NCBI GenBank assembly: GCA_002245135.1
Contig: NGBS01000919.1
Location: 1-49,208, forward strand
Length of the DNA stretch: 49,208 bases
Reading direction: 5' to 3'
DNA from: Proteromonas lacertae
Taxonomy: Eukaryota
In this document: positions 1-46,571 of the stretch, piece by piece
Numbering within the stretch: position 1 is the first letter of the stretch
Layout: the number at the start of each line of letters is the position of its first letter
Program-made: the position numbers and the translations under genes
Notes under the pieces: model-generated
What the model was told of the DNA's origin: nothing
What the model saw: the letters and a program-made list of their open reading frames with translations, nothing else
Databases searched by the model: none

Positions 1-2552
1 GTTTCTCTAGCATCATAGCTCTTTGATTAATACTATCTCGATTTGCATTTCTCATATAATCATCAATTTTTAAATAATTATTTTCATCTTTATCATCTAA
101 TCTTGCATCTTTTAATACATAAATATTATCTTTCAAAGATACTGGTACTATCAATTCTACTGTATCTCCTATCTTAACAAAGAATGGATAGTTATAGAAT
201 TTGTGAATTCCATCACCTGGTATATCACATGACATATAATCAAACATTGGATCACTTATTACATACCATGCTCTATCACTTTCTTGAGATACTATTACTT
301 TGATTTGTTTACATTTGATTTTTTTATCGTTAGGCCAATTTTTATCATAATCCATACCTATTAATACTTTTATGTTTTTATTTTCCTCTTCATCATCTGA
401 TAGAATATTAATACATGGATTATATATGTATATTTCCTGCTTAGCTTGTCTTTCATTAAATGCTGTTCCTCTATGATTCTTTAACCAATATTCTAATAAA
501 CCAGTAAATGAATATATATTTCTATTGTAATCATATCCATAAAACATCATATTGATACTACTGTAATTTTGAGGTATATATTTACTTCAGTTGCATTATA
601 TTTAGATCTAGGTAATAAAGGTAAATTGATGTTTTCTTCTCTAACCCAATCAGTAAAGAACATATAACTCTTGCTTGAATTTTCATCTACAATTGTACAA
701 GGTGGATTATGATTATGTATAAATGCATCAATTGAATAGATTTTACTATTATTTGTTAACAATTGTGTATAAAACTCTTGTATTATCTTAGTTACACCTA
801 TTTTTGCACCATTTTCTCTAGTAGCTAAAAATCTATGAGATTTATAAAGTCTCTATTTGGATTTGGTATAGCATTAAGCAAATCATCTGGTACTAAAATG
901 AAAATCTATCAGATGGTATAAGATGATGAGGATTAAATTGATTACTTAAACTAATTACATTAGATCTAGATGCATTTAATACAGGAGGAGGTGGAGGTGG
1001 TTGTTGTTGATCAGTTCTTGCTGGCATAGGTCTTGGTGGCAAAGGAGGAGGTGGTATTTGATTACTCATATCACCAAGATCATAAGTGTCTGAATCTTCT
1101 TCAGTATCACTACTTGATGGATTATTATAATTATCTTCACTATCACTATTGCAGGTGATGCATTATAAAATGCATTAACATTTCTATCAATCAATCTGCA
1201 GTAATTGATGGATGAGCAGGAGGATAATTAGCTGGTGCAACATATCTCCAATTTCTATGATCTGCAACATTCATTCCAACATAAGCTGGAACTGATCTTC
1301 TATGTTTAATTTGACGGTTAAGCTGCGTATCTAAAGCTCTATTCATTCTAAAAGTTATAGGATTAGCAAATATATTTGTATTGATTTGTCCTTGTGGTAC
1401 ATGAGCTTCTGTTAATATTTTTTGTATAGTTGCTAAATAGTTATATCTATATCCAGTTCTATTATCACCATCTGGTAATCCCATAAAATTTCTTCTATCA
1501 GAATGATATGGTAAAGTATATTCATTATCATTTTGATAATTACCACTTAGCTTATCTTTTAATATTGGTATATAATATAAAGCTAATATATACAAATCAG
1601 TTACACAGTTGTATATGATTAACGCAATTGAATAAGCTGTTTCTTCTTTTTGATTTGTTAAATACCAAAATTTAGTTCTCATTAAACGACCTATATAAAA
1701 CTTTAACTTATCTTTCAGAGAATCACAAAAGCTAATTATATCATAATTTGCATTGTTGTTATTATTTTCATTATTATCATTGTTATTATTTCCGTTGTTG
1801 TTATTATTGTTATTATCATTACTTCCATTGTCTGCATTTACTAATACTCCTCTTACCATATTATCATGTCTATTTTGCATAACATTTTCTGCTCTTATTT
1901 CAGCTGCACTATTATAATGTTCATTATTCATTATGTTAAAATCATTTTCTGGTTCTGGATGTCTTTCATCAATTTCATAATGAGTTTTTTTAATTCTTCT
2001 ATTTTCTAGTTGTGTAACACCTATTCTCTCTTTTGGGTGTAAAACAACAAATGGATTTCTTTGTAATATAAAATCAGATGCCATACACAATTTATCAATA
2101 CCATCTGCTATACGAGTTTTAAATATTCCACATTCTCTTGCATTAGCAGAATTTTCATTTCCTGCTAATTTTGGATTATAAGCTTCTAATGGTTTGCCAT
2201 GTGCAAAAGGACCTGTTACAAATAAATTCTTACACCAATTAAACATTTTCATATGTTCATCATATAAATTATATATTCTATTAAACTCATGATTTGGCCA
2301 ACCTACAGGAATCAGTCTATATTGCATAATCAATGTTTTGTTAAATCTTTTCACTTCTTGATTCACATAGTTATTCAAATCATCTTCGCTTATATCTTGA
2401 AATGGTATGACTTGATTCCTTCTATGTCTTCTTCTATGCCTTATTCTGTTCATATCAATAGGTACATTATCTTCATCTTCTTCATATTCATAATCATCAT
2501 CTGTTGGTTCATCTTCATCATTTGAATTGTTAACTTGTGGTTGTGGTTGCAT
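1..2552 (-). CDS. Large viral hypothetical protein (>850 aa, 3' end beyond window), broken by five -1 frameshifts
   Basis: ORF 1191..2552 continues through a Pro-rich segment (QIPPPPLPPRPMPARTDQQQPPPPPP), ORF 547..762 and an open frame to base 1 if one base is restored in short A/T runs at ~1193, ~1149, ~896, ~847 and ~568. Confidence 0.7.
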
Positions 2553-2631
2553 ATATATATAACAATATATAAATTAAAGAATAATTCAAATAAAATTATA
2601 TTTTAATATTTCTCAACAATTATAATACATA

Positions 2632-3603
2632 ATGCAACCTAAAGATAGTAATAATGTTTTAAGTAATAGAAGATCATTGTTCTTAACTACATCAGACTAT
2701 GATCCAAAATTTTCTGATAGATGGACAAGATGTATTAATACTCCTACTATAACTGAAAAATATCAATATATGAGTTTAATTACTGCAGTTATTCCAAATA
2801 ACTTCTATACAATACAAGATGAAGTAAATGATCATATACTCTTTAATTTTACTTATTACAGTTGCAGAAATACACAAATAACAGATCGTGAAGAATGGTC
2901 AAAAGCTGAAAACCAAAATGGACCTTATAATAAAACTATTGATATTAAAATACCTCAGAGAAATTATACAGGAAAAGAATTATTAGATTTTTTTAATGAG
3001 CAATTTCTAAAAATAAGCTTTTCAAGGATAGGTGGATCACAACCACCTTTACCTGGTGAGGATCCTGCAAATGATTATCCATTTCGTATAGTAGATGATC
3101 AAACAGATGTACTTCAATTTGATAATACTTCAGAAAATAGATTAGTGCTATATTTTAAGTTTTTAACACATTATGGAAGATATTACTTTACAGATTTTAG
3201 TATAGAATTCCCTAACTTAACTTATAAGTTATATGGTGTTGATGAAAATAATAAAAGTATATCAATTTATCATGCAAATAGTCTTGCAGATGCATATTTC
3301 ACTAATATTTTTGGTGCTTTTCGTAAAGTATTACCCAATCAACCTTCTTTACTATGGGTGTCATTTATTCAAATTAGATGTGACTGGGTTAATAGTGGTG
3401 AGAATTCAATGGTTTTAGCAAATATACCTGTAACTGATATAAATGCAGAATATACAACATTCACTAATCCACAAATTGAATGGACAGCTAAAAAGATGCA
3501 ATATCACGAATATCAACGAATGAAGATAACAGTCTCTCAACAAGATGGCTATGCAATTGATTTAAAAAACCTACCTATTTATTTTGAGATTATTTTGTAT
3601 TAA
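2632..3603 (+). CDS. Minor capsid protein (penton, single jelly-roll) of Polinton-like virus
   Basis: Motifs resembling Polinton/PLV/virophage pentons: IPNNFYTI, IKIPQRNYTGKELL, LANIPV, C-terminal ITVSQQDGYAIDLKNLPIYFEIILY. 323 aa, directly upstream of the MCP. Confidence 0.78.
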   Translation: MQPKDSNNVLSNRRSLFLTTSDYDPKFSDRWTRCINTPTITEKYQYMSLITAVIPNNFYTIQDEVNDHILFNFTYYSCRNTQITDREEWSKAENQNGPYNKTIDIKIPQRNYTGKELLDFFNEQFLKISFSRIGGSQPPLPGEDPANDYPFRIVDDQTDVLQFDNTSENRLVLYFKFLTHYGRYYFTDFSIEFPNLTYKLYGVDENNKSISIYHANSLADAYFTNIFGAFRKVLPNQPSLLWVSFIQIRCDWVNSGENSMVLANIPVTDINAEYTTFTNPQIEWTAKKMQYHEYQRMKITVSQQDGYAIDLKNLPIYFEIILY

Positions 3604-3660
3604 TAAATTTCTTGCTATTTTTAAGCATTTTTTGATTTTTTAAAAATAACATAAAATAAT

Positions 3661-5100
3661 ATGTCAATCACTGCTGTACCTGCTTCACAAAAACATGAAA
3701 GCATTGTGCCAGCTTATATACCTGTCTATAATCATATTTTAGTGACTCCAAATCAAGCTCGTAATGAAACTGTTTTATCTACAAACTCAAACAGTGATTC
3801 AATTACATTTGAAATATCTGGCGATAATTGTGTTAATCTATCAAAAAGTTACTTTGAATTTGAATTAGATTTTAAACCTGGTTTAACAAGAGATCATGTT
3901 GATGGAGAAGAAGAACCTAACCCTTGGGATTCTCCTACTAATTTCACTGAAGAAGGTAATGTATTATTTTTGCGAAATACTATGAATTTTGGAACTATCA
4001 AAGTTTACAACAAAACAGGAACATTGTTATGTGATCTTGATACTAGTTATAACGAATATAGAGATTTAGCTCATCAAATTGCAAATCAATATCCTTATGA
4101 TTTGAAAGAACCTACCTACTATGAGGAAATTTTTGATGGATTACATTTTAATTGTGATAATGGAAGTTATAGTGTTGACAAAATTTTTCTTTGTTCACCA
4201 AATAATGGTGAAGACAGTACTCCTAATTATTGGATTGAACAAGCAAATGGCAAAGATATATTACATGGTAGATTACGTTGTAGATATCATTTCTATGATT
4301 TATATAATACAATTTTAGCATTGAAGAATGATATTTATTTTGGCGAAGTCATTTATATACAATTCACATTTGCTCCTATTGTTAATTGGCTTATACATGA
4401 ATCTGAGTACAAGCTCTACAATAACGAATGGCAACCATTTGTAGAAATGAGAGTTATCAACCCTAGACTATACATTTGTTATAATAAAGATCCTACATGT
4501 AATGCTAATACTATTAATTATACTACTCATCATCCTATTGACTTTACTGACTTTAACATAGTTCAAGTAACTAAAGATCCAATTTCTGGTAGTAATACTT
4601 TTAACTATAACTTCAGTATTAATAGCAGTATAGGAAGTTATGTTAAATTCATATTATACAGAGCTTATTTCAATGCAATACATGATAGAAGTGTAGTTCC
4701 ATTTACTGAAGATCAAGATAGAATAAGATGGCAAATTAATGATTTCGTTTATACACCTGATTATTTATATCCATCAAAATATCAGACATGGGAATATATG
4801 AGAAATTATATTCAAAATACATTATTTGAAAGATGTTCTCAACAATCTTTTGCTTATAGATTCTTTGATATATTAAATTTCAGTACTGACCGTTTAACTG
4901 AATTAAAGTTAAGAGCTGGTAAAGATTTATCGAGTGATTTAAAAATAACATTAGATTGTTCAAACCGTAACTTTGATGCTAGAAAAGATAATCCAGATGA
5001 TGAGGATGAAAACAGAAATAGAACTATTCATCATAAATTCTACATAATTACTGGTAAACAATTGATTATTGGACCAAGGGGTGTTGAAAAAGTAGTATAA
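3661..5100 (+). CDS. Major capsid protein (double jelly-roll) of Polinton-like virus
   Basis: 479 aa, beta-rich. N-terminal ITFEISGDNCVNLSKSYFEFELD resembles Polinton/PLV MCPs. Lies between the penton and the ATPase. Confidence 0.8.
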   Translation: MSITAVPASQKHESIVPAYIPVYNHILVTPNQARNETVLSTNSNSDSITFEISGDNCVNLSKSYFEFELDFKPGLTRDHVDGEEEPNPWDSPTNFTEEGNVLFLRNTMNFGTIKVYNKTGTLLCDLDTSYNEYRDLAHQIANQYPYDLKEPTYYEEIFDGLHFNCDNGSYSVDKIFLCSPNNGEDSTPNYWIEQANGKDILHGRLRCRYHFYDLYNTILALKNDIYFGEVIYIQFTFAPIVNWLIHESEYKLYNNEWQPFVEMRVINPRLYICYNKDPTCNANTINYTTHHPIDFTDFNIVQVTKDPISGSNTFNYNFSINSSIGSYVKFILYRAYFNAIHDRSVVPFTEDQDRIRWQINDFVYTPDYLYPSKYQTWEYMRNYIQNTLFERCSQQSFAYRFFDILNFSTDRLTELKLRAGKDLSSDLKITLDCSNRNFDARKDNPDDEDENRNRTIHHKFYIITGKQLIIGPRGVEKVV

Positions 5101-5180
5101 GTAATAACACTTTATTATTGACTTCTATTTTTATTTTTTGATTTCTCACTACATAATATATATATATATATACACACACT

Positions 5181-5941
5181 ATGTTTAAATTTGAAAAAAT
5201 AAATAATATACAAATTGAACCTGTTGATGGTGGTGAGTCATTTGATCCTAAGAAAATTCTGGGTTATGATTACTTTAACGAGCCTTTCTGTAATATTTTT
5301 ATTGTGGCACGTAAGAACAGTGGGAAAACCACTTTGATATACAATATATTAAGACATATTATAGATCCAAAATATAAGAAAAAACAACATGTACATTTTT
5401 TCGTAGGTACAATCAAACAAGATAGAATATATGATTCAATTAAAGAGTTGTTAGATTATAATGAAATTAGTTATGATGAAAACGATTCTTTATATGATCC
5501 TTACTCAGGAGATAATTTAGTAGAGAAGTTAATGAAATCAATTGATGATACAAACAAAGATAATTATGAGTATGCAGAACATATTATAATATTTGATGAT
5601 CTTAGTTTAGAGTTGAAAACAGCTAATATCATACCAGTATTAATGAAAGAAAATAGACATTTAAAATCAAAAATTATAATTAGTAGTCAATATATTACTG
5701 ATATAGTACCTTCAGCAAGATCACAAGTAGATTATTGTTTAACATTTTATGGATTGAGTAACAGAAATTTGTTTGACTTATATAACTCATTGAATATATG
5801 GATACCTGAATATGAAACATTTAAAGAGTTATATTTAGCTGTTACTAAGCCACAATATAACTTCTTATATATTGATAATGTTAAAAAAGTGTTTAGAGCT
5901 AACTTTAATATTTGATTGAAGATCATTCTGAAGTTTCTTGA
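5181..5941 (+). CDS. A32/FtsK-HerA-like DNA packaging ATPase
   Basis: Walker A FIVARKNSGKTT, Walker B IIIFDD, then KENRHLKSKIIISSQY..ARSQVDY (RH/Q/R motifs of the A32 family). The ORF stops at 5915 as written; adding one T at ~5911 gives ...NFNILIEDHSEVS* ending at 5941. Confidence 0.9.
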
Positions 5942-5985
5942 TGTTTTTATTAATTTTGTTATTTTATTGTTTATTAATTCAAAAA

Positions 5986-6771
5986 ATGTTTATTGGGGAA
6001 CGAAATACTTCAGATATAAATATTGATACAGATAAGCTTGCTAAAGATATAGCTGACAAAATAAATATACAACCTACTGATCCTGATACTATTGTTAAAC
6101 CTATTAATAATCATACTGATACTCAAATAAATAATATTATTACACCTGTTAATGATATCAAAACTACTACAAATACTATATATGGTAAATGTCAAGAAAT
6201 ATATAATGTTGTAAATAATAGCTCTGGAGGTAGCACTACAATAGTTAATAATTCTGTATCACCTAAATTATTGCATACTGAATATACATATTGGTCAGTT
6301 AATTTCTATATATTTCAAGATGGTTCCATCAATCAATATGAATCTACTGTAAAAGTACCTATAAAAATTCAAATGTTTGAACATTTTATGAGAATCAAAA
6401 TATATAATGGCCTTGTTTTAAAAAATCATGATGATGGTTATGGATTTATATTATATCTAGATGACAATCATGTTATTAAAGCTGAACCAGGTAAAGAAGA
6501 TTTATTGCAACAATATTATAACAAATTATTAGAAACATACTTTGTAGATGGTAGTAATGGAATATACTTCCCTATACAAGGTGTAATAAATGAAACTTCA
6601 CAACCTGCAATTAATGATTATGGATGTTTTTGGCCTATATTAAGAAATAATAATAATAAATGTAATCTTTATATAGAACGAAAAGGTCTTGATGCATATT
6701 CATATCAAGCATTCCCACCTCAAGTTATTATAACAGAGTGGATGGATACAGGTGTTACAGAACCATTTTAA
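5986..6771 (+). CDS. Viral hypothetical protein (possible fibre/spike-like)
   Basis: Intronless ORF from ATG 5986 (MFIGERNT). Low-complexity/helical N-terminus, SSGGS linker, aromatic beta-rich C-terminal domain. Function inferred from position only. Confidence 0.6.
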   Translation: MFIGERNTSDINIDTDKLAKDIADKINIQPTDPDTIVKPINNHTDTQINNIITPVNDIKTTTNTIYGKCQEIYNVVNNSSGGSTTIVNNSVSPKLLHTEYTYWSVNFYIFQDGSINQYESTVKVPIKIQMFEHFMRIKIYNGLVLKNHDDGYGFILYLDDNHVIKAEPGKEDLLQQYYNKLLETYFVDGSNGIYFPIQGVINETSQPAINDYGCFWPILRNNNNKCNLYIERKGLDAYSYQAFPPQVIITEWMDTGVTEPF

Positions 6772-6907
6772 TCTTTATTATGATTATTTTATTATGTTTA
6801 TTATAAAATTTATTATATTTTTATTATATTATATGATTTTTATTAAATTACGCATATTTTTAAACCCTGTCCCAAATCATTTTAAGATAAAGATTCGTTT
6901 TTAAAAT

Positions 6908-7387
6908 TTAGACTATGTTTATCGTAGTTTGATCATTGTTTCCTTTAACTTCTTCTTGTGCTTCTTCTTCCTCATCATCATCACTATCATCAAATATATA
7001 ATTCTTCTTTACATAATGTTTCAACATAGGATTCTTCTTCAAATGAACACTTCCCATTCCTTCAGGTAGTGTTAACCATTCAATATACTTATCAAACACT
7101 GCAAAATAATGTCTATTTAATCCTCTTGGTTTTACTGATGGTTTAATATCGAAAAGCATCATATAATATCTCTTATCACTATACTTTGTCCACATCTTTT
7201 GATGGCAAATAGCACAGAATTCATTATAAGACTTTATCTCTTCCTTAGGTAATGGGCTATCTAAAACTGCACTTATGTTATGGTTAAAATATAAGTAAAA
7301 CTTACATGTTCCACATATACACTTATCTAAATAATCTTCATTATTTCTAAATGAACAAAAGAAAGCAAAGTTTACTGAAGCACACAT
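6908..7387 (-). CDS. Viral Cys-rich hypothetical protein (possible Zn-binding) with acidic tail
   Basis: 159 aa intronless ORF with CICGTC and CAICH motifs and a DDSDDDEEEE tail. Confidence 0.65.
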   Translation of the reverse strand: MCASVNFAFFCSFRNNEDYLDKCICGTCKFYLYFNHNISAVLDSPLPKEEIKSYNEFCAICHQKMWTKYSDKRYYMMLFDIKPSVKPRGLNRHYFAVFDKYIEWLTLPEGMGSVHLKKNPMLKHYVKKNYIFDDSDDDEEEEAQEEVKGNNDQTTINIV

Positions 7388-7639
7388 ATTTATATTTTTT
7401 TGATAAAAAACGGTTTTTCTAAAATTTCAGGAAAATCAAAACTGTTTCTTTTTTCTGTTTATAACAACAGTTTCTCGTCAGAATTTCGATTTAGTAAAAA
7501 ATATAGAATACTGCAGATAATTCTTTAAATATATATTTTTGATACTATTTAAATTCTTTTGAATGTTTTTAACTACACTATATAAATCCATGAATAAATT
7601 GATAAATGAAAAAAAATAACCAAAAAAAAGTAAGAACGC

Positions 7640-8030
7640 ATTCTGTAGCTTGGCCATTACACTATTTAATCACTAAGTCCTAGTCAGGCTACACAGGACA
7701 CGCTACTTACTTACATAGAAATACATTTCTTATTCTATAAAGTAGCTACCCTGCCGGGGTAGAACAGGTAGCTACTTATCTATTTCTACACATTATTTCT
7801 ACTATCCTACGCTAAAAACTATTAAAAATATAAAAATAGAATTTGACCCATAAATTTATTCACACACTAAAATATATACACAATTTTAAATTCACCACTT
7901 GCTCCAGTATAACCCGTACCAAAAACTAATTCACACTCAAATCGCTTATTCTTATCTGTAGAAGGCACCTAAGAATAGTCTGGTACGGTTTACCCACATA
8001 CAGTGATATTCTTACGGTTATACATATATA
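7640..8030. repeat. Structured terminal region of the viral element (inverted repeats and iterated motifs; candidate TIR/att end)
   Basis: IR AAGTAGCTACC 7740-7750 / GGTAGCTACTT 7767-7777. Stem TGTAGCTTGGC 7644-7654 / GTCAGGCTACA 7683-7693. GTATAACCCGTACCA 7907-7921 is complementary (1 bulge) to TGGTACGGTT 7981-7990 and TACGGTTATAC 8013-8023. Confidence 0.6.
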
Positions 8031-8032
8031 TA

Positions 8033-8416
8033 TATGGATATTATGGCGAAAATGATGAAGAAAAATGGCAAATCGATATGGTTGTGGATGGAACTTATGA
8101 TTTAAGATCTAAATTATATGATGCTACTGTATTTAGTAAGAATGAAGCTGCTGATTCTAAAGTATTTGTTGAAACAGTACTTCCAACTTGGCTTACTTAT
8201 TTTGAAAACTTGAAGAAGAGAAATGAAGGTGATTTTTATGTAGGAAAGAAAGTAACAATAGCTGATGTTGCTGTATATGATACATTATATGAATGTAATG
8301 TAACTGCCAAAGGTATGGTGTTAGAAAATGAAACTTTAAAGAAATTTATGGAATCTTTTGAAAAAATACCCAAATATGCTGAATATCGTAAATCATCAAG
8401 ATGGCATACAGAATAA
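8033..8416 (+). pseudogene. Glutathione S-transferase, C-terminal domain only (5' part missing at the viral junction)
   Basis: YGYYGENDEEKWQIDMVVDGTYDLR...FYVGKKVTIADVAVYD is a typical GST C-terminal domain. No N-terminal thioredoxin-like domain, ATG or nearby splice acceptor upstream. Confidence 0.75.
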
Positions 8417-8465
8417 TTAATTTTGAATTAAAATTAATTGATTTCTATTTCTATTTACATTATAT

Positions 8466-11400
8466 TTATTCAACATTAAAGAATTCTTTCAAAATCTCTG
8501 CTTTTTCTTCTTCTTTCATTCCACTAAGTTTGATAATTCCAATTGATGAAAATGTATTCAATAATGACTGTAATTCGGATTTATCTATATTCTCTTTAAC
8601 TTTTATCGATAATTCATCTAAATCTTCAAATATATTCTTGTTTTCTTTCATTAATCTCAATTCTTTTTCATTTAATTCTTTTCCTGATAGATTTATCTTT
8701 CTCAATATTTCAGTATATTCTTTTAATCTTTCTATTAACACTCTTAAACCTTTTTCACTCATTCCAACATCTATTGATGTAAAGATTACAAGTATAAATA
8801 CTTGATATATCAAGATTACTCCAATTACAAAATTTATTTACATACTTACATATTATCTCTACTCCTTCATCTCCAATATCATTGCCAAATAGAGAAATAT
8901 TATCTGCAGTTTCTGGTAAAGAATCTGTTAATTCTTTTAACCCTTTAGATGTTATTTTATTATTAGATAAATTGATATTCCAAAACCGCATTTGTGTAAT
9001 ACAAGATATATGCGAATCATTGATATTCATTGAAGAAAAGTCCAAATTATCTCTTTCTTTTTTAATACAATAATCCAAATAGTATTCCAATTCTTCGTTT
9101 GTCCATGATGAAGATTTCACTTCTATAAACGGATACCACTCTCTTTCTACAGACTTTGAACATATGGATATTAATCCATTCATTTTTATATTATTTCCAT
9201 TCTCATAAATAACTTTACACTTTTCAATTGAATCAATTTTATTTGTTAATAACCTTATACTTATATCATCAATCAACATATTACTTAGATTCATTTCATT
9301 TTGATAGTTCAATAATGGTATTCTGTTAAGCAACAATTTAAATCCATCATTACCAACTGGGTTATCTATAATATATTTTATTATAAATATACTATGCATT
9401 GAGAACTTTTTTATATTATCTTTATACCTCACATACTTCATCCAATATTCAACTCCATCCAAATCAATATTATTATCACTAATATCAAGCATCTCAATCT
9501 TTCCTTCAATATTCTTTAGACTATTAAGCAAGCATTTTAATCCTACTGAAGATAATCCTATTTCTATTTTAAATAAAAATATAACTATAACTATACTTCT
9601 ACAACTGATTCTTTTCTTATCATCTATTAATAAATCTATATGTGGAGATAATAATGTCATTCCTTTATCTCCTATTTCATTTCCATTTAACTGAAGTTCT
9701 TTTAGACTTGAAAACGTAGATGAATTAGTATATTATCTAAATAATAGAAACATATTTAATTATACTACTCAAATCTAACTTTTCTATTTCTCCTAATTCA
9801 CTTGATCTTAATGAGATGAAAGATTTGATAAAACTATCATCTATTAAACCATTATTAAATGCTAATCTGCATTTCTTGTATGTATAATTCTTTTTAATAT
9901 TATCTATAATTTGTGGAATTTGTTCATCAATAAGTAATCCTTTACATTCATCAAAATATACTTTATTTATTGGATATTTCAAAAATAAGTATTTTAACCC
10001 TTTATAATGAATATTATTCTTTCTAATATCAATCTTTTTGTTATTATCTATTAAATACAATCTATCTGTCAATGCCATAATTGATTCATCATTCAATCTC
10101 ATATTACTAAGGTTTAATTCATTTTTGTTTATTAATAAATGAATATAAGGTATAAATAAACTAAATTCTCTTGAATTTTTAATATTTTCTACATAAATAT
10201 AATGATAATTTATATATATATATATACTACCAAGTTTTAATGAATTTAGTTTCAAGTATGGAATTATTTTTACAAACGCTTCAAAAAATGAACTATCTAA
10301 TACACATTCTGACAAATCCAATTCTTGTATAGTTGATAATTGAATGAATTGAGAGGCAAATAATATTTGATCTTCTGCTTCAAGATTTATATTAACTACA
10401 ATATAATATGATTGAAATTGGAAATATACCAAATTTGAGTTTTGTTTGCCTTGTTAAAGTAAACATTTTAAACATATATTTTATTCCATCTGAATTAAGA
10501 TATACACTTTCTCTTTTAGTTACTAATACAGTTGCTCTATCATAATTCAATTTCATATTAAAAAACATCTCACTGTTAGAAAAAGGTTTAATATTTATTT
10601 TATTCTTTAACTGATATGATTGGATATATTCTTTAACATACCACAATATAGATAATGATTGATCATCTGCTTGGTTATTATATAGTTTTATAAAATTATC
10701 CCTTAAACTTTCCCATCTTGCAGATTTGATATAATATTCTTTGGGAAATACAATTGGTAATTTTAACACTTCATTATCTACTTCATATATCTGTTGAGCT
10801 ATCTTCCCTTCGATCTTCATACTTTCAACGATTTCTTCATTATTCTCTTTGGTTATAAGAATCTTCAACTCCATTATTACTTCATCTAATGAAATTCTTT
10901 TTATTTCGTTAATATTTAACATTCTTTCAATCAATTCTCTGATATATTTATCCTTAGTTTCATCTTTAATAATCATATTACTTTTGAAATGTTTCTTTGT
11001 TGTTAAATGAAAATATATACAACCTAATGACCATATAACACTATTTTGACTTAACTCTTTGTTTTTTAATCTCTCTGGACTTATAAATAAAAGATCATAT
11101 GAATTTGTATCTTCATAGTCTCTCATCTCATCTAGATACAAATCACATAACAAAATGTTGTTTATTTTTTCATTATAAACTATGTTTGATGTTTTTAAAT
11201 TATAATTTATTAAATTAGTACTATCCAAAAGCGATATTGCTCTGCATATCATCAGCATTAGTGTATATAATTCTTCAAAATGATAATTTGACTGTATAAA
11301 ATAATCCAAATCGTTTGAATAATAGTCTCTATCTATTCCTAAATATCTATTATTATGCAATAGCATCCATCTTGATATAATAAACGGTTTTGGCTGAATT

Positions 11401-11636
11401 AATAACAACTGTTGCTGTATTTCAAAACTGTATTTTATATTCAATGCTTTGTTATAAATATCAAATATTTTAATCAATTTTATCCTTCTTCTGATAGATA
11501 TTTTGTAATGACACTCATTCTTACTTTTATTGGTTATTTTCAGTACCTACAATCAAAACTTAAAATAATATACCTTAAATTCGGTTGGGTATACACTAGA
11601 TAACACATTTTTGAAATCAAAACTTTTGAAACCCAT
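8466..11636 (-). CDS. Multi-exon kinase-like domain + RI-type leucine-rich-repeat protein
   Basis: ORFs 10392..11477, 9737..10432, 8755..9660 and 8466..8813 are joined by short GT-AG introns; ATG at 11636 (MGFKSFDF). Kinase-like NYNLKTSNI/FISPE/VIWSLGC; LRRs such as LDISDNNI and ISLFGNDIGDEGV. Confidence 0.75.
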
Positions 11637-15394: not shown

Positions 15395-16636
15395 ATGAAA
15401 TCCATTTTTTTGTGTCTATTGATAGGTATATTTTAAAATATAATATACTAGTTGGCACTATCCTCTGTGCTGCTGAGAAAACCAAATTCACTGGTTTGAT
15501 AGCTGCTACTTATAGTCCATTTCGTTATGATGTATTTATTTAATCAAAATATTAATACATAGAATCAAGAGTTGAATTTGACTGCAGTTCCATTACAAGC
15601 TGATTATTTAGTAAAGACAGGAGTAAAAGCAGTATTTGTAGGAGGAACAACAGGTGAAAGTTTAATAATGTCAATGGCAGAAAGAAAAGAATTGGCAAAG
15701 AAATGGGTTGAAGTAGGTAAAGAAAAGGGTATTAAAGTTATAATTCACGTTGGAGCTGAAAGTATCAGAGAAGCTAAAGAATTTTCAGCATATTGTGAAA
15801 GTATTGGTGTTGATGGAATAGGTGCTATGTCAACAGTATTCTTCAAACCAAATACAGCTGATAATTTGGTAAAACAAATGAAAGAAATCGCCAGTGGTGC
15901 TCCCAATACACCATTTTTATATTACCACTTACCAGCCTTGACTGGCTGCAAGGTAGGTATGCCAGACTTTTTGAAGTTAGCAATTAATGAAATTCCAACA
16001 TTTGCAGGTATTAAATTCACAGATGTAATCTTAAACGATGTAACTGAAATGCAAAGTATGTTAAAGAATATGGGTAAATCTGATTCAATAAGTTTATTAT
16101 ATGGTGTAGATGAATCATTTGATGTATCTGTATTTATGAGAATGGATGGTGGTGTTGGTTCAACTTATAATTATGCTGGACAGATATACAACAACATAAT
16201 GGAAGCTTATAAAGCTGGAGATCATAAGAGTGTAAGATTATATCAATACAGAAGTGAATTGTTTGTAAGAATCTTTGCAAAATATAATGTCAATAATATG
16301 GATGCTCATAAGTTATTGAATACTTGGACAACTGGTGTAGATGTTGGTCCTCCAAGATTGCCATACTTAATGGTAACAGAAGAATTACAAAAACAATTTA
16401 GAGCTGATTTAGAGAAGGCTAAATATTTTGAATGGGTAAATGAAAAATATGAATCAAAAGATAAAAGTACAAACAGTTGGATAATAGGAGGTATTATTAC
16501 TGGTGCTTTGGTATTGATTATTATTATTATTGGATTGTACTATTTGTTCAGAATGTTGATTTCTAAGAATGTAATGAAGGAAGAACCTACTGCTGGTGAT
16601 TCTACTACTAATGCTCCATTATTAAATCAACAGTAG
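15395..16636 (+). CDS. N-acetylneuraminate lyase (DHDPS/NAL family) with signal peptide and C-terminal transmembrane helix (3 exons)
   Basis: Spliced start MKSIFLCLLI|VGTILCAAEKTKFTGLIAATYSPF; GGTTGE, YYHLPALTG, GIKFT (Schiff-base Lys), GVDE, GGVGSTYN; TM WIIGGIITGALVLIIIIIGLYYLF. Confidence 0.88.
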
Positions 16637-17041
16637 AAAAAAGTAATGTGATAATAATAATAATTCATTGTTTACTTTTCTATTGTTGGTGAAATATGAA
16701 AATAATCTGATTTGTACGATTGATGTTATTCATTTTATTATTTAAATGGATTATTATTTTCAAAAATATACTATTATTAGTGTATAGAACATTAACAAAG
16801 TGTGTAAACTTAAGAAGTCACTTCTGTTATATGTAATATTATTTAGAATATTTTATTCAACTCAGTTAAAAACCTTGATGATGGTAGCTTTCTAGTAACA
16901 TGTCTGTATGCTTCAAAAACCACACTGTAAAGTTCGAATTTCATCAAACCTCAATTTTGGATTTTTTCTTATTTTTCTCGTTTAGGTGTATAATATAGGT
17001 TATATAAATATATAGTATTATTGAATGCAGCTTAAGTAAAA

Positions 17042-19795
17042 ATGCCAACACTGAGTGTAGCTTATGGAGTGGATTTAGGAACAACTTTCTCTGCTGCTTG
17101 TTTTATTGGAGCTGATAGTGTTGAACATATGATTAATCCAAACTCTGGAGCTATTAATACTATTCCTTCTTGTGTTTGTTATTTTGATAAATTAGATAAT
17201 GCCGCTGTAGGTACCGCTGCTGAATTAAAGGCTAAATCAACTCACAGTACATTAATTTATGATTCAAAAAGGTTAATTGGCAAATATTATAGTGATATTA
17301 TACCAGAAGAAATAGATAGTTTCCCATTTGAATGTATTGAAGATGATAAACTTGTGAAGTATAGTATAACTATTGAAGGAAAAAAGACAATAATATCACC
17401 AATAACAATATCATCAGAGATTCTAAAACATATTAACAAAATATCTTTATCTCAAATAACTTATAATAATGTAATAGTAGATGATATTCATGTTGTGATT
17501 GGTATTCCTGCTGTTTTTAAATACCATCAAAGAGAAGCAACCTATCAAGCAGCTAAAAAAGCTGGATTAAAAAACATAGAATTATTAACAGAACCATCAG
17601 CTGCTGCTTTAGCTTATATTCAATCTAACCATGATCAAATCATAAATAAAAATGATTGTAATATTTTAGTATATGATTTTGGAGGTGGAACATTTGATGT
17701 ATCAATAATTAATTTAAAAGATAAAGAAATAAGTGTAAAAGTAACTCATGGAGATGATCATTTAGGAGGTCAAGATATAACTCGAAGATTGGAAGAATAT
17801 ATAAAGAAAGATATTAAAAAGGTAATGAATATAGATATATCAAAGAATGAAAAATTGAAACTTAAAATTCATAATGCATGTGATGAAGCAAAGAAAAACT
17901 TATCATCAGCAGAAGATGCAGAAGTATACATGGAGCTTTCAGGTAAAGAATATTCAAAAACAATAACAAGATCAACTTTAACTAATTTATGTAAGGATTT
18001 GTTTCAAAGAACTGTAGATGTAGTAAATCAAACATTGAATTTAGGTAAAATGACAGCTAAAGATATTGATTATATAGTATTAGTTGGAGGTTCAAGTAGA
18101 TTACCTCAAGTAAAAGAATATATTAATAACAATTTTAAAGAAATTCCTATTAGTAAAAGTGTAAATCCTGATGAAGCTGTAGCTATAGGATGTGGAATAT
18201 ATGCAAATTATAAACTTAATGGGAAGTATCCATTCAAAATAATTGACTTTATTCCTCCTAATCCAATCTCCTTTGGTATAGATTTAGGAACAACATTTAG
18301 TTGTGGTGCTTTTTATAATTACTCATCCAGAAATTATGCTGTTATATCAAGTGGTCAATCATCTAATTCAATTCCTTCTCTTGTTGCATTTGATAAGAAT
18401 ACATCGCAAATAAAAGTAGGAGTTGCTGCAGTATCTTCTCCTTTGAATAAATTCTCAACAGTAGCTGAAGCAAAGAGGTATTTAAATATGAAATTTGCAT
18501 CAGTTAATGAAAATGACTTTAAATATAACAAATATAAATTGATAGAAGGAAAAGATGGGTTTTGTGAATATGAAGTTGAATATAACAAAACATCGAAGAG
18601 ATATACTCCAGTTGAAATATCTTCAATTATATTAAGACATATAAAAGAAATGGCACATCCTCAAATGATAGGAAGTGGAAATGTGGATAAAGAAGCATTT
18701 CCAGTAGTAATAACAGTTCCAGCAGATTTTAGTTTCAATCAAAGAAATGATACAATTCAAGCAGCCAAAAAAGCTGGTTTGAAAGTATTGCATTTAATTA
18801 ATGAACCAACAGCAGCTGCGTTTGCTTATATTTCAAATAATGAAATTAGAAAGAAGAACTGTAACATTTTGGTGTATGATTTTGGTGGTGGTACATTTGA
18901 TGTAACAATAATAAATCTGAATGGAAATATAATTAAAGTATTATCTACAGCTGGTAATAATCATTTAGGTGGTGTAGATGTAACTAATAGATTGTGCGAA
19001 TATCTAATTTCAAAAGTACAAGAAGCTATGGGAGGAGATGAATTAAATCAAACAAAAATTGCTAGAATAAGAAAAAGAGCTGATGAGATAAAAATTGAAC
19101 TTTCATCAACTCATAACAGTACATTTGATTATGACGATGAAGATGAAAATAGTGAAGATATTTCAAGAGAATTCTTAAACAAATTATGTGATGAAGACTT
19201 ATTCTCGAAAACAATCAAAAAAACAAAGCAGGCAATACAACTAGCATCTAATGCAATAGATGATGATATAGTAATTGATTATATAGTATTAGTTGGTGGA
19301 TCAAGTAAGATAAAAAGAATTGAAGAATTAATATCAAACAATTTCAGAGGAATTCCAATCTGTAAAAGTGTAAATCCTGATGAAGCAGTAGCAATTGGAG
19401 CAGCATTATATGCAAGAAATATTCAAGATGAGAAAATTAAACATTATAAAATAGTTGATGTTTTATCAAGAGCTTTAGGAATAGAAGCAAGAAGAACATT
19501 AGGTGGAAAAGTAATGACAGTTATTATTAAAAAATGTTCAGCCTTACCAGCATCTGGAAGTACTATTGTTAGCTGTAAAAGTGGAATGGCAACTGTAAAT
19601 ATTTTTGAAGGAGATGGTAAAACATCTGCATCTCAAGTGAAATTGGGTAGTGTAGAAGTTGAAGTAAGAGGTAGTAATGAAGTGGAAATATTTTTTGACG
19701 TTTCTGAAGACGGTATATTGACATTTAGAGCAGTTAGTAATGGAAGAGAAGTGAGAAGTGAATTTAAAATTAATAATTCTGTTTCTGAAAAGTAA
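17042..19795 (+). CDS. Atypical Hsp70-family protein with two tandem nucleotide-binding domains (paralog 1)
   Basis: Two full sets of G(V/I)DLGTT, EP(S/T)AAA, VYDFGGGTFDV, VLVGGSS and NPDEAVAIG, then a ~100 aa truncated substrate-binding beta domain. Intronless. Confidence 0.92.
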   Translation: MPTLSVAYGVDLGTTFSAACFIGADSVEHMINPNSGAINTIPSCVCYFDKLDNAAVGTAAELKAKSTHSTLIYDSKRLIGKYYSDIIPEEIDSFPFECIEDDKLVKYSITIEGKKTIISPITISSEILKHINKISLSQITYNNVIVDDIHVVIGIPAVFKYHQREATYQAAKKAGLKNIELLTEPSAAALAYIQSNHDQIINKNDCNILVYDFGGGTFDVSIINLKDKEISVKVTHGDDHLGGQDITRRLEEYIKKDIKKVMNIDISKNEKLKLKIHNACDEAKKNLSSAEDAEVYMELSGKEYSKTITRSTLTNLCKDLFQRTVDVVNQTLNLGKMTAKDIDYIVLVGGSSRLPQVKEYINNNFKEIPISKSVNPDEAVAIGCGIYANYKLNGKYPFKIIDFIPPNPISFGIDLGTTFSCGAFYNYSSRNYAVISSGQSSNSIPSLVAFDKNTSQIKVGVAAVSSPLNKFSTVAEAKRYLNMKFASVNENDFKYNKYKLIEGKDGFCEYEVEYNKTSKRYTPVEISSIILRHIKEMAHPQMIGSGNVDKEAFPVVITVPADFSFNQRNDTIQAAKKAGLKVLHLINEPTAAAFAYISNNEIRKKNCNILVYDFGGGTFDVTIINLNGNIIKVLSTAGNNHLGGVDVTNRLCEYLISKVQEAMGGDELNQTKIARIRKRADEIKIELSSTHNSTFDYDDEDENSEDISREFLNKLCDEDLFSKTIKKTKQAIQLASNAIDDDIVIDYIVLVGGSSKIKRIEELISNNFRGIPICKSVNPDEAVAIGAALYARNIQDEKIKHYKIVDVLSRALGIEARRTLGGKVMTVIIKKCSALPASGSTIVSCKSGMATVNIFEGDGKTSASQVKLGSVEVEVRGSNEVEIFFDVSEDGILTFRAVSNGREVRSEFKINNSVSEK

Positions 19796-20001
19796 ATCAA
19801 GTTATTAATGTTATTATATTTTATTGTATTAAATAGAAATTAAACATATACTCTCATAATCATTTCGTTTTATTCTAATGTAAATTTGTGGCTTGATTCT
19901 ACTGTCAAGCTTATTTTTTGTTTTTTTTTGTAATTTTCATTTTACAGTATAATATAGACATTATAATTATATAGATTATATAAATACGAATATAAGTAGT
20001 G

Positions 20002-22755
20002 ATGTCAAATACTAAAATATCATATGGAATAGATTTAGGAACAACTTTTTCAAGTGCATCATTTATTAATTCAGTTGGTAAATTGGAAATTATAAATCCA
20101 GGATCAGGTCAAAAGAATTCAATACCTTCTTGTGTTTATTATGATTTAAATATAAATGAGGTAAAAGTGGGAGAACCAGCAGTAAATTTATCTAATAACA
20201 ACCCATCTAATTTACTTTATGATTCTAAAAGATTTCATGGAAAGTATTACTCAGATATTAGTAAAAGTGAAATTAAAACATATCCGTTTGATTTGGTTGA
20301 AAAAGATCTTCTTCCATATTATGAAATCAGTGTCAATAATGAAGTAAAACATCTAAATTCAATACAAGTTTCAACAGAAATTATCAAACATATCAACAAA
20401 ATATCTTTACCTCACATTACTCATGAATATGAAAAATTGAGTGAAGATGATATTCATGTTGTTATTGGTATTCCTGCTGTTTTTAAATACCATCAAAGAG
20501 AAGCAACCTATCAAGCAGCTAAAAAAGCTGGATTAAAAAACATAGAATTATTAACAGAACCATCAGCTGCTGCTTTAGCTTATATTCAATCTAACCATGA
20601 TCAAATCATAAATAAAAATGATTGTAATATTTTAGTATATGATTTTGGAGGTGGAACATTTGATGTATCAATAATTAATTTAAAAGATAAAGAAATAAGT
20701 GTAAAAGTAACTCATGGAGATGATCATTTAGGAGGTCAAGATATAACTCGAAGATTGGAAGAATATATTACTACTCAAATATCAAAAAAGAAAAGAGTAG
20801 ATATATCTAAAAATAGAAAACTTAAACAAAGAATTCACAAAGTATGTGAAGAAGCAAAAATCATGTTATCAGTTTCTGAAAATTTTGATATTGCTATAGA
20901 ATTACCAGATGATGAAGAATATTCCGAAACAATAACAAGAGCAAGATTAACTAAATTATGTGAAGATTTATTTCAAAGAACAATTGATGTAGTAAATCAA
21001 ACATTGAATTTAGGTAAAATGACAGCTAAAGATATTGATTATATTGTATTAGTTGGTGGTTCAAGTAGATTACCTCAAGTTACAGATTATATAAGTAATA
21101 ATTTTACTGGAATTCCGATATGTAAAAGTGTAAATCCTGATGAAGCTGTTGCAATAGGATGTGGAATATATGCAAATTATAAACTTACAGAAGAAGGAGA
21201 AGGTCCATTCAAAATAATTGACTTTATTCCTCCTAATCCAATCTCCTTTGGTATAGATTTAGGAACAACATTTAGTTGTGGTGCTTTTTATAATTACTCA
21301 TCCAGAAATTATGCTGTTATATCAAGTGGTCAATCATCTAATTCAATTCCTTCTCTTGTAGCATTTGATAAAAAATCAGACAAAATGAAAATTGGTTATG
21401 GTGCTGCAAATTGTACAAATAAAAAATATTCATTTGCAGCTGATGCAAAGAGATATATTTGTAGAAATTTCAAAGGTGTTGATGAAATAGATTTTATGTT
21501 TGCGCCATATAAGTTAGTTGAAACTAAAGAAGGCGCTTGTCAATATGAAATAGAATATAATAAAGAAACAAAGTATTATTCACCAGTAAATATTTTATGT
21601 TTAATTCTGAAATATATTAAGGAAACAGCAATTCCACACATTCCAGAATCATCAAAAGAAAATCCAAACGATTTTCCTGTTATTCTCACTGTTCCAGCTG
21701 ATTTTAGTTTTTTACAGAGAGATAAAACAATGAAAGCAGCAAAAGAAGCTGGTTTAAAAGTAATTCATTTGATTAATGAACCAACAGCAGCTGCGATCGC
21801 GTATATTTCGAATAATGTAATAAAAAAAGATAATTGTAATATAATGGTGTATGATTTTGGAGGTGGAACTTTTGATGTTTCAATATTAAATGTTAGTGGA
21901 GATGATATAACTGTGTTAAGTACAGCAGGTAATAATCATTTAGGAGGTCAAGATGTAACAAATCGATTGTGTGAATATCTTGTGCCAAAAGTTCAGGAAT
22001 CTATAGGAAAAGAATTAGATGAGAAAATAGTGAAAAGAATTAGAAAAACTTCAGATAAACTAAAAATCAACTTATCTTCAACTATAACATTTAATTTTGA
22101 GATTGAAATAGATGATGAAAATGAATTTACAAGAGAAGTAAGCAGATCAGAATTGGAAGAAATTTGTCAAGATCTTTTCTATAAAACAATAAAGAAATGT
22201 AATGATGCAATAAAATTTGGAAAGATAGAAAAGATAGATTATATCGTATTAGTAGGTGGTTCAAGTAGAATTCCAGCTGTAGAAGAAATATTAAAGAAGA
22301 ATTTTAAAGATATTCCAATTTGTAAAAGCATAAATCCTGATGAAGCAGTAGCAATAGGAGCTGCATTATATGGAAGAACATTACAAGATGAAACAATAAA
22401 TCATTATAAAATAGTTGATGTATTATCAAGAGCAGTAGGAATTGGAACAAAACGAGCATTAGGAAGTCCAGCAATGACAGTAATAATAGAGAGATGTTCA
22501 AAATTACCAGCCAAAGGAAGTACAGTAGTTTCATCCAGAAGAGGTATTGCTGTTGTTAGTATTTTTGAAGGAGATGGAACTAGTGTAGCAAGTCAAATAG
22601 AGTTAGGTAAAGTTACAATAAAAGTAATGAATGATGCTTCTAATGTAGAAATATATTTTGATGTTAATGTTAATGGAATACTTAAAGTTACAGCCAAATG
22701 TAATGGTTCAGAAAGCAATGCCACAATTGATCTAGCTCATCCTAAATTGAAATAA
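20002..22755 (+). CDS. Atypical Hsp70-family protein with two tandem nucleotide-binding domains (paralog 2)
   Basis: Same architecture as 17042..19795; first ATG at 20002. Confidence 0.92.
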   Translation: MSNTKISYGIDLGTTFSSASFINSVGKLEIINPGSGQKNSIPSCVYYDLNINEVKVGEPAVNLSNNNPSNLLYDSKRFHGKYYSDISKSEIKTYPFDLVEKDLLPYYEISVNNEVKHLNSIQVSTEIIKHINKISLPHITHEYEKLSEDDIHVVIGIPAVFKYHQREATYQAAKKAGLKNIELLTEPSAAALAYIQSNHDQIINKNDCNILVYDFGGGTFDVSIINLKDKEISVKVTHGDDHLGGQDITRRLEEYITTQISKKKRVDISKNRKLKQRIHKVCEEAKIMLSVSENFDIAIELPDDEEYSETITRARLTKLCEDLFQRTIDVVNQTLNLGKMTAKDIDYIVLVGGSSRLPQVTDYISNNFTGIPICKSVNPDEAVAIGCGIYANYKLTEEGEGPFKIIDFIPPNPISFGIDLGTTFSCGAFYNYSSRNYAVISSGQSSNSIPSLVAFDKKSDKMKIGYGAANCTNKKYSFAADAKRYICRNFKGVDEIDFMFAPYKLVETKEGACQYEIEYNKETKYYSPVNILCLILKYIKETAIPHIPESSKENPNDFPVILTVPADFSFLQRDKTMKAAKEAGLKVIHLINEPTAAAIAYISNNVIKKDNCNIMVYDFGGGTFDVSILNVSGDDITVLSTAGNNHLGGQDVTNRLCEYLVPKVQESIGKELDEKIVKRIRKTSDKLKINLSSTITFNFEIEIDDENEFTREVSRSELEEICQDLFYKTIKKCNDAIKFGKIEKIDYIVLVGGSSRIPAVEEILKKNFKDIPICKSINPDEAVAIGAALYGRTLQDETINHYKIVDVLSRAVGIGTKRALGSPAMTVIIERCSKLPAKGSTVVSSRRGIAVVSIFEGDGTSVASQIELGKVTIKVMNDASNVEIYFDVNVNGILKVTAKCNGSESNATIDLAHPKLK

Positions 22756-26869: not shown

Positions 26870-27348
26870 ATGTCTGACACTGAAGAAGCTCAACAAAATC
26901 CAGTATATATTGAATTATCTATTCATTAAAGGCAACAGAGGAACCAGAAGTTCCAGCAGCAACTGAAGAGAATGAAGAACCTGCACCAGCAGCTGAAGAA
27001 ACCCAACCAGCTGAAGAAGCTGCACCAGAAGCACCAGCAGAAGAAGGAGCAGCTGAAGAGAAACCAGAAGGTGGTGATGAAGCTGAAAAGCCAGCAGAAG
27101 AAGGAGAGGAAAAACCAGCAGCAGAAGAAAAGCCTGCTGAAGATGAAATACCAACTGAAACCTTAGCTGAAGATTTTACTTATGAAGATTATGTGGAAGG
27201 TGAAGAAGTAAATCCAGAAGAATATGAAATAGTTGAAGTGAATGGTGAAAAGAAAAAGAAGCGAATTCAAAAGAAAGAAAATCAACCACAAGGAGATGGA
27301 ACTGCAGAAGTAAAACCAGACTCAGGATCATGTTGTATAGTAATGTAG
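26870..27348 (+). CDS. Small acidic Glu/Ala/Pro-rich protein ending in a CaaX motif (intron 26903-26931)
   Basis: Spliced MSDTEEAQQNP|ATEEPEVPAATEENEEPAPAAEE...KKKRIQKKE...SGSCCIVM*. True frame not in the ORF track. Confidence 0.8.
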
Positions 27349-31639: not shown

Positions 31640-32012
31640 TTAATCGTTTAAATAGTTTCGTAATAATCATTAATAATTCATATCTTTATTCTTTGTTTTT
31701 CATTTGTTTATAATGGGAGTTTGATAAGTTCTCGAGAAATTTAAGAAATTCATCAAACCAATTAAGGTTAAAAATTTATTTCTTTTCATCTTCAACTTAT
31801 ACTTTTTCTGAAATGAATTTCTTTATGGGTTAAGTTATAATACATAATAGTTACATTTTAATATAATATCTAAAATGTGAATAAATAAAAGAATCACATT
31901 TATAGAACATTATCATTCTCTATGTTCATACAGTATAAAGATTAAAAAATCATAAAAATTCAAATAATTGGCTTGAGTGAGTTTGATTGGTTGATTGATA
32001 TTTTTAAAATTA

Positions 32013-32825
32013 ATGAAGCCAGAAGACGCTGCTGAGAGAATTAGAAAAACTAAATTAGTTTTTGATTATAGTAAAATTATTGGTGATACTTATGTTGCTA
32101 ATCGTCACACATTCTTTCAAAGAATGCAAGATCTTGGGGATATGGGATTGAAATTTGTATCAATAGACATACACAGTGACGAAGTAGTAAGTATTGCAGT
32201 TGATGCAGTAAAAGCTGCAGGTAAGATGATTTTTATTGGTGTTTCTGGTATATGTACTCAAGACCAATTTGATCTCGTGAAAGACACAGGAATTCATTTT
32301 ATTTCATGTCCAATATTACCTCAATTTGATATAGTCACAATGTGTCATGAATTAGGTATTGTATGTATATTATCAGGTGTAACTCCAAAAGATGTGATAG
32401 CAGCACACGATGCAGGTGCAGATTATGTACAAATCATACCAGTAACAAGTTATGATATATCAACATTAAAAAGAATGATTGAAGAGGGTATTTGGCAAGA
32501 TACAAAAATAATAGGCGCAGGAGGAGTATCCTTAGAAACTGCTCAATATTGGTTGAATGCTGGTTGTACATTAGTTACAATGAGTGACTGTATGATGGGA
32601 AAAGATATTTCATTAAAAGCAACTGATAAGATGTTTGGTGATGCTGTTCAAGATTTCAATCAACGTATTCGTAGTGCTGATTTTGAAGTATTAAATAATG
32701 TAGTTGTATGTAGTAGACCTCCTAAGAATTATGTTTGGGAAAAGAAGATTTGGGATGAACCTTGGACTCCAGTTGAAAGAGTAAAAGCCCCACCAGGTGG
32801 TGTTGATCATTGGCAATTGGGCTAA
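32013..32825 (+). CDS. KDPG/KHG aldolase-like TIM-barrel protein (catalytic residues altered)
   Basis: FISCP, SGVTPKDVIAAHDAGADYVQIIP, GAGGVSLETAQYWLNAG align with the Eda family. The usual VKxFP lysine is Q. Confidence 0.78.
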   Translation: MKPEDAAERIRKTKLVFDYSKIIGDTYVANRHTFFQRMQDLGDMGLKFVSIDIHSDEVVSIAVDAVKAAGKMIFIGVSGICTQDQFDLVKDTGIHFISCPILPQFDIVTMCHELGIVCILSGVTPKDVIAAHDAGADYVQIIPVTSYDISTLKRMIEEGIWQDTKIIGAGGVSLETAQYWLNAGCTLVTMSDCMMGKDISLKATDKMFGDAVQDFNQRIRSADFEVLNNVVVCSRPPKNYVWEKKIWDEPWTPVERVKAPPGGVDHWQLG

Positions 32826-46070: not shown

Positions 46071-46571
46071 CGAAACAAAATTGATATCTAATTCGAGTAA
46101 ATTAGATGGCATATATATCATTCTATAAAAAACCGAATTAACAGAAGTTGATGAGTTTTTACTGTTCTTGTATATGTTCTTGTAATTTGATGAGTTTTCA
46201 GCCTGACCTCCATACACAGACCGATTTATACAACCCTGATTAATCATAATTGATTTACATTTTTGTGTTTTGTTTTTTGTTTAATCATTAAGATAAGTAT
46301 TATAATATTCATCTAACTTTTGATCTTCATATTTTAGATATTTTATGTTAGATTTATGAATAACTGACAATAATTATCAAGCTCATATGTATTTTAGTTT
46401 TTTCTTCTTGTTGTGGGTTTATTATGTCCATTAATCTCATTTTTCTTATGACGAATTACTTATGTATGTTATTTCTACTAATTTTACAGAAGATTCTATC
46501 TATAACCCCCACAAATATCTTACTCATGAAAATCTAATTTCGTATTAAGGTTATAACTATATTTTAAGAAC

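Follow-up and report, generated by a model that had tools for sequence, protein, structure and literature searches.

What kind of virus a run of virus-like reading frames stems from when it lies beside intron-bearing eukaryotic genes, whether it is truly part of the host genome, and whether it is still sound are the questions raised by the stretch of DNA analysed here (49,208 nt; referred to below as the window). The viral block lies at the left edge of the window (positions 1–7387), where the open reading frame (ORF) list gives a compact run of intron-free frames, and eukaryotic genes follow from 8033 on. Our analyses indicate that this block very probably represents the end of a Polinton-like virus (PLV) on which the capsid genes lie, integrated into the nuclear DNA of an opalinatan-type gut protist, with probable membership of the capsid family reported from Proteromonas lacertae. 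The original prediction, made from the letters of the sequence, had seen here a Polinton-like morphogenesis module, likely integrated, and this view is upheld by the fold of the major capsid protein (MCP), the A32 match of the packaging ATPase, a probable penton, and the contiguous host genes. Endogenous PLVs are common in protists and have already been reported from this host group, and a find of this kind is therefore expected.

Capsid Genes and the Type of Virus

The gene at 3661–5100 (+ strand) encodes a protein of 479 aa, and the double jelly-roll fold of this MCP is established at the level of the predicted structure. Its AlphaFold2 model, built with an alignment of 129 rows (viz. the window sequence, 7 close relatives, and 121 of the 150 listed sequences, short fragments being mostly omitted), has a pLDDT of 85.3 and a pTM of 0.87. 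The top Foldseek match of the model is the mavirus MCP (E 1.2e-11), followed by iridovirus, PBCV-1, Sputnik, and PRD1, and comparison by VIA with the PBCV-1 capsid chain aligned 381 residues and covered the full length (Z 23.1, rmsd 4.9), the value for mavirus being Z 17.9. Sequence identity to solved capsids is 6–13% (7–9% to the mavirus and Sputnik MCPs), and the MCP gave no match in Pfam, including its NCLDV, Sputnik, and virophage capsid families, and none in PDB sequence searches, which also returned nothing useful for alignments A2 and A3 or for the three unknown ORFs of the block. Seven close relatives of the MCP were found among 2043 candidates (40–74% identity), all of them from Logan assemblies, and a profile made from these seven reached 262 representatives at E 0.001 and 12 at 1e-30. 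In a FastTree phylogeny of 124 rows (5 rows shorter than 380 aa having been dropped), which contains no named reference capsids and so gives no placement among PLV groups, the MCP falls in a clade of 12 rows with a support of 100 and a long stem; identities are 26–52% within this clade and 20–24% to sequences outside it, and the members checked are known from Logan only.

The product of the gene at 5181–5915 (+; 244 aa) is, by its sequence, an A32/FtsK-HerA-type genome packaging ATPase. It matches the Pfam family Pox_A32 (E 6.3e-5, barely above the curated cut-off) and the packaging NTPase B204 of STIV2 (E 7e-4), and Walker A, Walker B, and sensor motifs are in place at residues 43, 135, and 165; a tblastn search of phages with the ATPase gave no match.

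On the other side of the MCP, the ORF at 2632–3603 (+; 323 aa) probably encodes the minor capsid protein (penton). Five relatives were found among 336 candidates (38–59% identity), and the first match in the ESM Atlas is a Sputnik V18/19 minor-capsid cluster (0.98, 217 of 256 features), a label carried by 26% of the cluster members. The confident middle domain of the structural model matches the pentons of mavirus, Sputnik, and adenovirus at Z 4.4–5.7 (mavirus penton: Z 5.7, rmsd 3.5, 115 aligned), and 6 of the top 7 matches of this domain among 48,161 are these pentons together with two giant-virus capsid chains, which we take to be pentons as well. These Z values lie below 8, so the penton is regarded as probable and not as proven. 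Jelly-roll folds had been anticipated both for this ORF and for the MCP; the MCP model bears this out, but in the penton model, which as a whole has a pLDDT of 56.9 and no Foldseek match at E 0.001, the jelly-roll part is without a usable structure.

The ORF that follows the ATPase gene (5986–6771, +; 261 aa from the second ATG) is predicted to encode a trimeric fibre or spike. Its three-copy prediction has a complex score of 0.39 (best of 3 controls 0.00; pLDDT 45–46), with at least 52% of contacts shared between the trimer runs and an interface at residues 15–77; 21 of 30 solved homo-pairs and 0 of 23 single chains attain the mark applied to the complex score, a calibration that derives from two copies and not three. 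The model consists of an N-terminal parallel coiled stalk and a C-terminal head. Use of the first ATG, at 5941, would add 15 hydrophobic residues, and no notable family match was obtained for this ORF in Pfam, PHROG, or PDB sequence searches.

The fold of the MCP alone is without power to name the virus group, and an origin as part of a giant virus (Nucleocytoviricota) that became endogenous, or else as a virophage, has to be weighed in place of a PLV. Such an origin would agree with the best Z values of the MCP model, which are to the MCPs of PBCV-1, an iridovirus, and faustovirus, with its best Foldseek E value, which is to mavirus, and with the ESM Atlas neighbours of the element proteins, among which are clusters labelled Nucleocytoviricota and Sputnik-like. 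We nevertheless hold it to be highly improbable, since neither the MCP nor any of 63 relatives matches a Pfam NCLDV, Sputnik, or virophage capsid family, the identity to every solved capsid is as low as given above, and the adjacent genes for penton, MCP, ATPase, and fibre, followed by a genome end, form a small-virus layout. In addition, the Proteromonas capsid family which the virus resembles is classed apart from virophages in the available parts of the published survey (Bellas et al., 2023; PMC10120064).

Probable Integration and the Virus-Host Border

The viral block is contiguous on one contig with intron-bearing host genes and with a cut glutathione S-transferase (GST) gene. A codon-score scan found 14 candidate introns in the host part and none in 1–8033; 12 of the 14 are 26–40 nt long and 13 begin with GTA. 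Together with the ORF list and the inverted repeats described below, this confirms the arrangement first proposed, viz. an intronless penton-MCP-ATPase block, a structured non-coding end, and intron-bearing host genes. The composition of the two parts is closely similar: GC content is 27.0% in viral and 26.9% in host coding DNA, the observed/expected ratio of CpG is 0.26 and 0.32, depleted in both, and codon choice is near-identical, which fits a long residence in this nucleus.

The stretch between the two parts (7430–8032), which contains no ORF of 80 codons, is likely the right terminal repeat of the element. It holds 3 GC-containing inverted-repeat stems, a number attained in none of 300 shuffles and in none of the window's 955 other tiles, a significance that is somewhat flattering as the region and the stem rule were picked after looking. 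A hairpin is located at 7740–7777 (folding of 7735–7785: z −3.2, 1/200 shuffles), a further folding score for the end region is z −2.5 (1/100), and one motif is present in three copies of alternating orientation (7907–7921, 7981–7993, and 8013–8023) ahead of an (AT)6 run at the border itself (8024–8035). PLV genomes of about 14–40 kb are bounded by terminal inverted repeats; no second copy of the end sequence is present within the window, and an Rfam search of 6700–8500 gave a single match at chance level (E 0.13). A hairpin-primed end, as in the palindromes of Halocafeteria PLVs, was considered and is unsupported: folding of the last 130 nt is at the level of shuffled sequences (35/200 and 16/200), and there is no perfect terminal palindrome.

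The frame of the host GST gene (8033–8416, +; Pfam GST_C_3, E 2e-18) starts right after the (AT)6 run and retains the C-terminal two thirds only, clear likeness to GST pi beginning at about residue 77 of 209; an Arg seven codons before this point also aligns, maybe by chance. Pfam detected no GST N-domain in 9 upstream frames, no confirmed relative was found in a prokaryote genome scan, and tblastn against plasmids gave no match. Splicing of the N-domain from 7430–8032 was also tried and rejected: 24 exon chains reach the GST frame, none of them with any of three GST motifs. The end region thus meets a GST gene that lacks its first third, and this is therefore likely the insertion point, at which the host gene was split and its 3′ part left behind.

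The true end of an integrated element could instead lie nearer 7430, with 7430–8032 being host intergenic DNA and the GST gene already a fragment. The end region is without a demonstrable partner repeat, AT runs are common in host introns, other non-coding patches of the host part are also rich in CpG, and the chance-level folding of the last 130 nt would agree with this placement. We judge it unlikely, as the inverted-repeat content exceeds that of all 955 other tiles and the likeness to GST ends abruptly at the AT run, nothing of the N-domain being seen upstream of it. The genome of a free virus, co-sampled with the host and misjoined to its DNA by the assembler at an AT-rich run, would likewise produce a border at (AT)6 next to an incomplete host gene, and the close relatives of the MCP do come from short contigs (longest 10.2 kb). 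This explanation is very improbable in our assessment: an opalinatan genome is reported to carry hundreds of endogenous copies of relatives of this capsid family (PMC10120064, available parts), the viral composition matches that of the host, and a real insertion is expected to leave a cut host gene next to the virus end.

For an integrated PLV, the following course of events may be envisaged. An integrase encoded by the element (rve or tyrosine recombinase, beyond the left edge) would have inserted the genome at an AT run within the GST gene, orphaning the 3′ part of that gene. Once expressed, the MCP would assemble as trimers into an icosahedral shell, with the penton at its vertices likely bearing the trimeric fibre, and the excised linear DNA would be driven into this shell by the ATPase. 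A long history of copying and transcription of the family in this nucleus is suggested by its host-like GC content, CpG depletion, and codon use.

Condition of this Copy

The capsid, penton, ATPase, fibre, and Cys-rich ORFs are all open, and about 1,470 codons in these five whole viral ORFs are unbroken. A different picture is presented by the long gene at 547–2552 (−), whose largest open piece is 1191–2552. The coding stretch 550–1190 (−), which joins 1191–2552, had been missed in the original prediction. This stretch scores 52.5 as coding DNA (best of 100 shuffles −52.4), while intact ORFs of equal length score 50–62 and five non-coding gaps score −44 or lower. It is connected to the larger piece through four frame breaks (near 1193, 1149, 898, and 839–855), and the best coding path from 1400 to 550 takes four shifts, all of them one base short, whichever of three penalties is applied. 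Hence, 547–2552 likely forms a single gene of about 670 codons with four breaks within about 355 nt. Its product has acidic, Arg-rich, Asn-rich, and Pro-rich tracts and no family match in Pfam or PHROG or structure match in a PDB sequence search. Introns as the cause of the breaks would be possible with GT-AG pairs of 34, 53, or 121 nt, none of which passed the intron scan.

The shifts are of the same sign, lie in or beside short base runs, and are close to the window edge, for which reasons long-read assembly error is suspected; artificial frameshifts occur in such repeated viral regions according to the available parts of PMC10120064. Real decay is possible, and this copy of the same virus may be a decaying relic in which the four breaks are genuine and the capsid genes have not yet been hit. 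Four frame shifts in about 355 nt, a fully host-like composition, and other broken genes nearby (viz. the GST half, the leucine-rich repeat (LRR)/kinase locus at 8466–11546, and a stop-ridden gene at about 44–46 kb) speak for a relic, whereas the uniform loss of a single base within 1.2 kb of the edge, which is the pattern of uncorrected long-read error, the reported artificial frameshifts, and the unbroken codons of the other five ORFs speak against it. We regard a relic as quite possible, though short of an even chance. The original prediction that the provirus is recent and able to make particles is therefore weakened: the capsid ORFs are unbroken, but the long gene is broken four times and the host-like composition is as expected from long residence, and the chances that the present copy can make particles are near even.

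Affinity of the Host and of the Virus Family

A Blastocystis-like host had been proposed for this DNA, which is fair as a neighbourhood, but the GC content of 26.9% falls outside the values for 11 Blastocystis assemblies (21.5–23.1% or 39.4–55%) and matches that of Proteromonas lacertae (27.0%), as given in the available parts of PMC12129017. According to the same parts, Blastocystis from human and rat has 39–55% GC and 30-nt introns, tortoise isolates have 21.5–23.1% GC and longer introns, and the downstream motif of human Blastocystis is absent from tortoise Blastocystis and from Proteromonas. The window contains 2 copies of this motif in 49 kb, and its host genes end in normal stops. Because of the GC content and the capsid family, the host is probably an opalinatan-type gut protist that is Proteromonas-like. 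A low-GC Blastocystis, unsequenced so far, is another candidate; the capsid family would then be extended to a genus for which the MCP-count column is blank in 10 of 10 screened assemblies (PMC10120064, Table S1, in which the meaning of the column was deduced from the matching value of 285).

In the available tables of PMC10120064, the P. lacertae genome carries 285 MCP genes, which all fall in one "new" cluster (counted by column as number 26; cluster criterion at least 25% identity over 30% of length), making up about 11% of its DNA (Table S4). The first 400 residues of a P. lacertae MCP in Table S3 follow by eye the motifs of the window clade in the same order, including NCxNLSKSYxE, FNYxFxINSSIGxY, and WxINDFxYxP. 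A PBCV-1-like fold match and an AT-rich gut opalinatan host are common to both; the published protein has 450 aa against 479 aa here and differs by many substitutions and indels, again as judged by eye. The sequence likeness indicates that the window virus probably belongs to the capsid family reported from P. lacertae. The suggestion of an undescribed lineage is accordingly not sustained, as MCPs of endogenous viruses of P. lacertae, matched here by eye, and a Blastocystis MELD virus have both been published (PMC10120064 and PMC8502044, in the parts available).

Among better-described systems, mavirus, Sputnik, and Polintons share with the window a double jelly-roll MCP, a penton, and a packaging ATPase, and mavirus integrates in a bigyran host. 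A cysteine protease is typical of virophages, and protein-primed DNA polymerase B (pPolB) with an rve integrase of strict Polintons; none of these is seen among the ORFs of this incomplete element, and genes for pPolB and integrase would lie upstream of the window. Pfam and PHROG searches of the window's viral ORFs found no replication gene (pPolB or primase-helicase) and no integrase (rve or tyrosine recombinase). The Blastocystis MELD virus (Starrett et al., 2021; PMC8502044), as far as its description is available, resembles the window virus as a midsize linear DNA virus of a gut opalinatan with divergent virion proteins; it carries pPolB and an integrase, genes that in the window virus would lie beyond the left edge. 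The PLVs of the bigyran Halocafeteria seosinensis (10.64898/2026.07.28.741278, available parts) have the same block of MCP, minor capsid protein, and ATPase, also without a protease in the block, and repeats that average 485 bp, compared with a non-coding end of about 500–600 nt in the window; unlike them, the window element has no GC contrast to its host and no perfect terminal palindrome, and their MCPs cluster apart from those of Proteromonas. In the portion of a preprint on egoviruses that is available (10.1101/2024.03.23.586382), no gene flux is reported between gut giant viruses and Blastocystis, and hence it supplies no helper virus for this host group. Searches for related loci in IMG/VR (with alignment A1, the ATPase, P0122, and P0127) and in JGI metagenomes (with A1 and A3) yielded no confirmed relative, and our literature search on Blastocystis or Proteromonas and Polinton-type viruses, which did not extend to the Proteromonas genome paper, found no whole genomes of this family.

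Several observations weigh against an integrated PLV of the Proteromonas family. The virus-host junction is known from the assembled contig alone and is marked by no step in GC content; the left end, the partner repeat, a target-site duplication, a replicase, and an integrase are all absent from the 49-kb window; and 13 of 475 other tiles have a CpG level as high as that of the end region. The MCP model is nearer to giant-virus MCPs (Z 19–23) than to those of mavirus and Sputnik (Z 17–19), the penton model is poor, with both ends below a pLDDT of 50 and no usable model for the jelly-roll part, and both ESM Atlas queries fall below the recognition mark of 2300 (1667, and 1986 for the penton). 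Lastly, one long viral gene is broken four times, and the likeness to the published P. lacertae MCP is by eye only. With these points taken into account, we continue to view the capsid-gene end of an integrated PLV as the very probable identity of the block.

Other Genes of the Window

Two further ORFs complete the viral block. An ORF of at least 183 aa with viral codon use (2–550, −) extends past the left window edge and at its start overlaps with the stop of the frame upstream; neither Pfam nor PHROG gave a family for it at E 0.1. The final gene before the element end (6908–7387, −; 159 aa) is Cys-rich, with two CxxC-like pairs and a weak Pfam zinc-finger match (E 0.073, below the cut-off), and its product possibly binds zinc.

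The host part contains genes for GST, an LRR/kinase, a PH-kinase, neuraminate lyase, Hsp70s, an SP-RING protein, a dual-specificity phosphatase, Dcp1, a Mus81-type nuclease, PP2C, and TPR proteins, and presumably a dynein light chain. The kinase and leucine-rich-repeat locus adjoining the virus end (8466–11546, −) is fragmented, through introns or decay. The N-acetylneuraminate lyase (15395–16636, +) is hydrophobic at its N-terminus, has a membrane-like segment at the C-terminal end, and is possibly surface-anchored, for the scavenging of sialic acid; its close relatives are 87–88% identical and the named bacterial and animal ones 27–41%. A tandem pair of genes without introns, each about 917 codons long (17036–19795 and 19996–22755, +), encodes proteins in which Pfam finds two consecutive Hsp70 ATPase domains, followed by a short tail; the two genes are 70–97% alike in blocks at a spacing of about 2970 nt. 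A Glu/Pro/Ala-rich repeat protein (26914–27348, +), without a Pfam family, ends in a CaaX-like prenylation motif. The KDPG/KHG aldolase family gene at 31995–32825 (+) has 34.7% GC, above its neighbours, and is possibly of bacterial origin. At 38781–40608 (+), a PP2C phosphatase is fused to cyclic-nucleotide-binding domains, a fusion of interest given that Blastocystis is reported to have lost its nucleotide cyclases (PMC12129017, available parts). A long Gly/Ser/Asn-rich repeat-like coding stretch with many stops and shifts (43950–46080, +) looks like a decayed surface-protein gene.

Significance for the Virus Family and its Hosts

The available parts of PMC10120064 give MCP sequences and counts for the P. 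lacertae family, and its Table S5 may describe other genes of the cluster. The window supplies this capsid family, seemingly without a genome description, with a probable penton gene, the prediction of a fibre, a candidate for the terminal repeat, and an insertion site that disrupts a host gene, and MCP relatives at 26–74% identity are spread over public sequencing runs. A further proposal, which we consider doubtful, is that this opalinatan-specific family, so far represented by capsid counts only, is still active and would form fibre-bearing particles by itself in an anaerobic gut protist for which no giant-virus helper is known, pass between hosts in animal guts (the close relatives all stem from unannotated sequencing-run assemblies), and knock out host genes on insertion. 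A cultured gut opalinatan with hundreds of copies would in any case be a handy system for asking whether a PLV makes particles without a giant virus.

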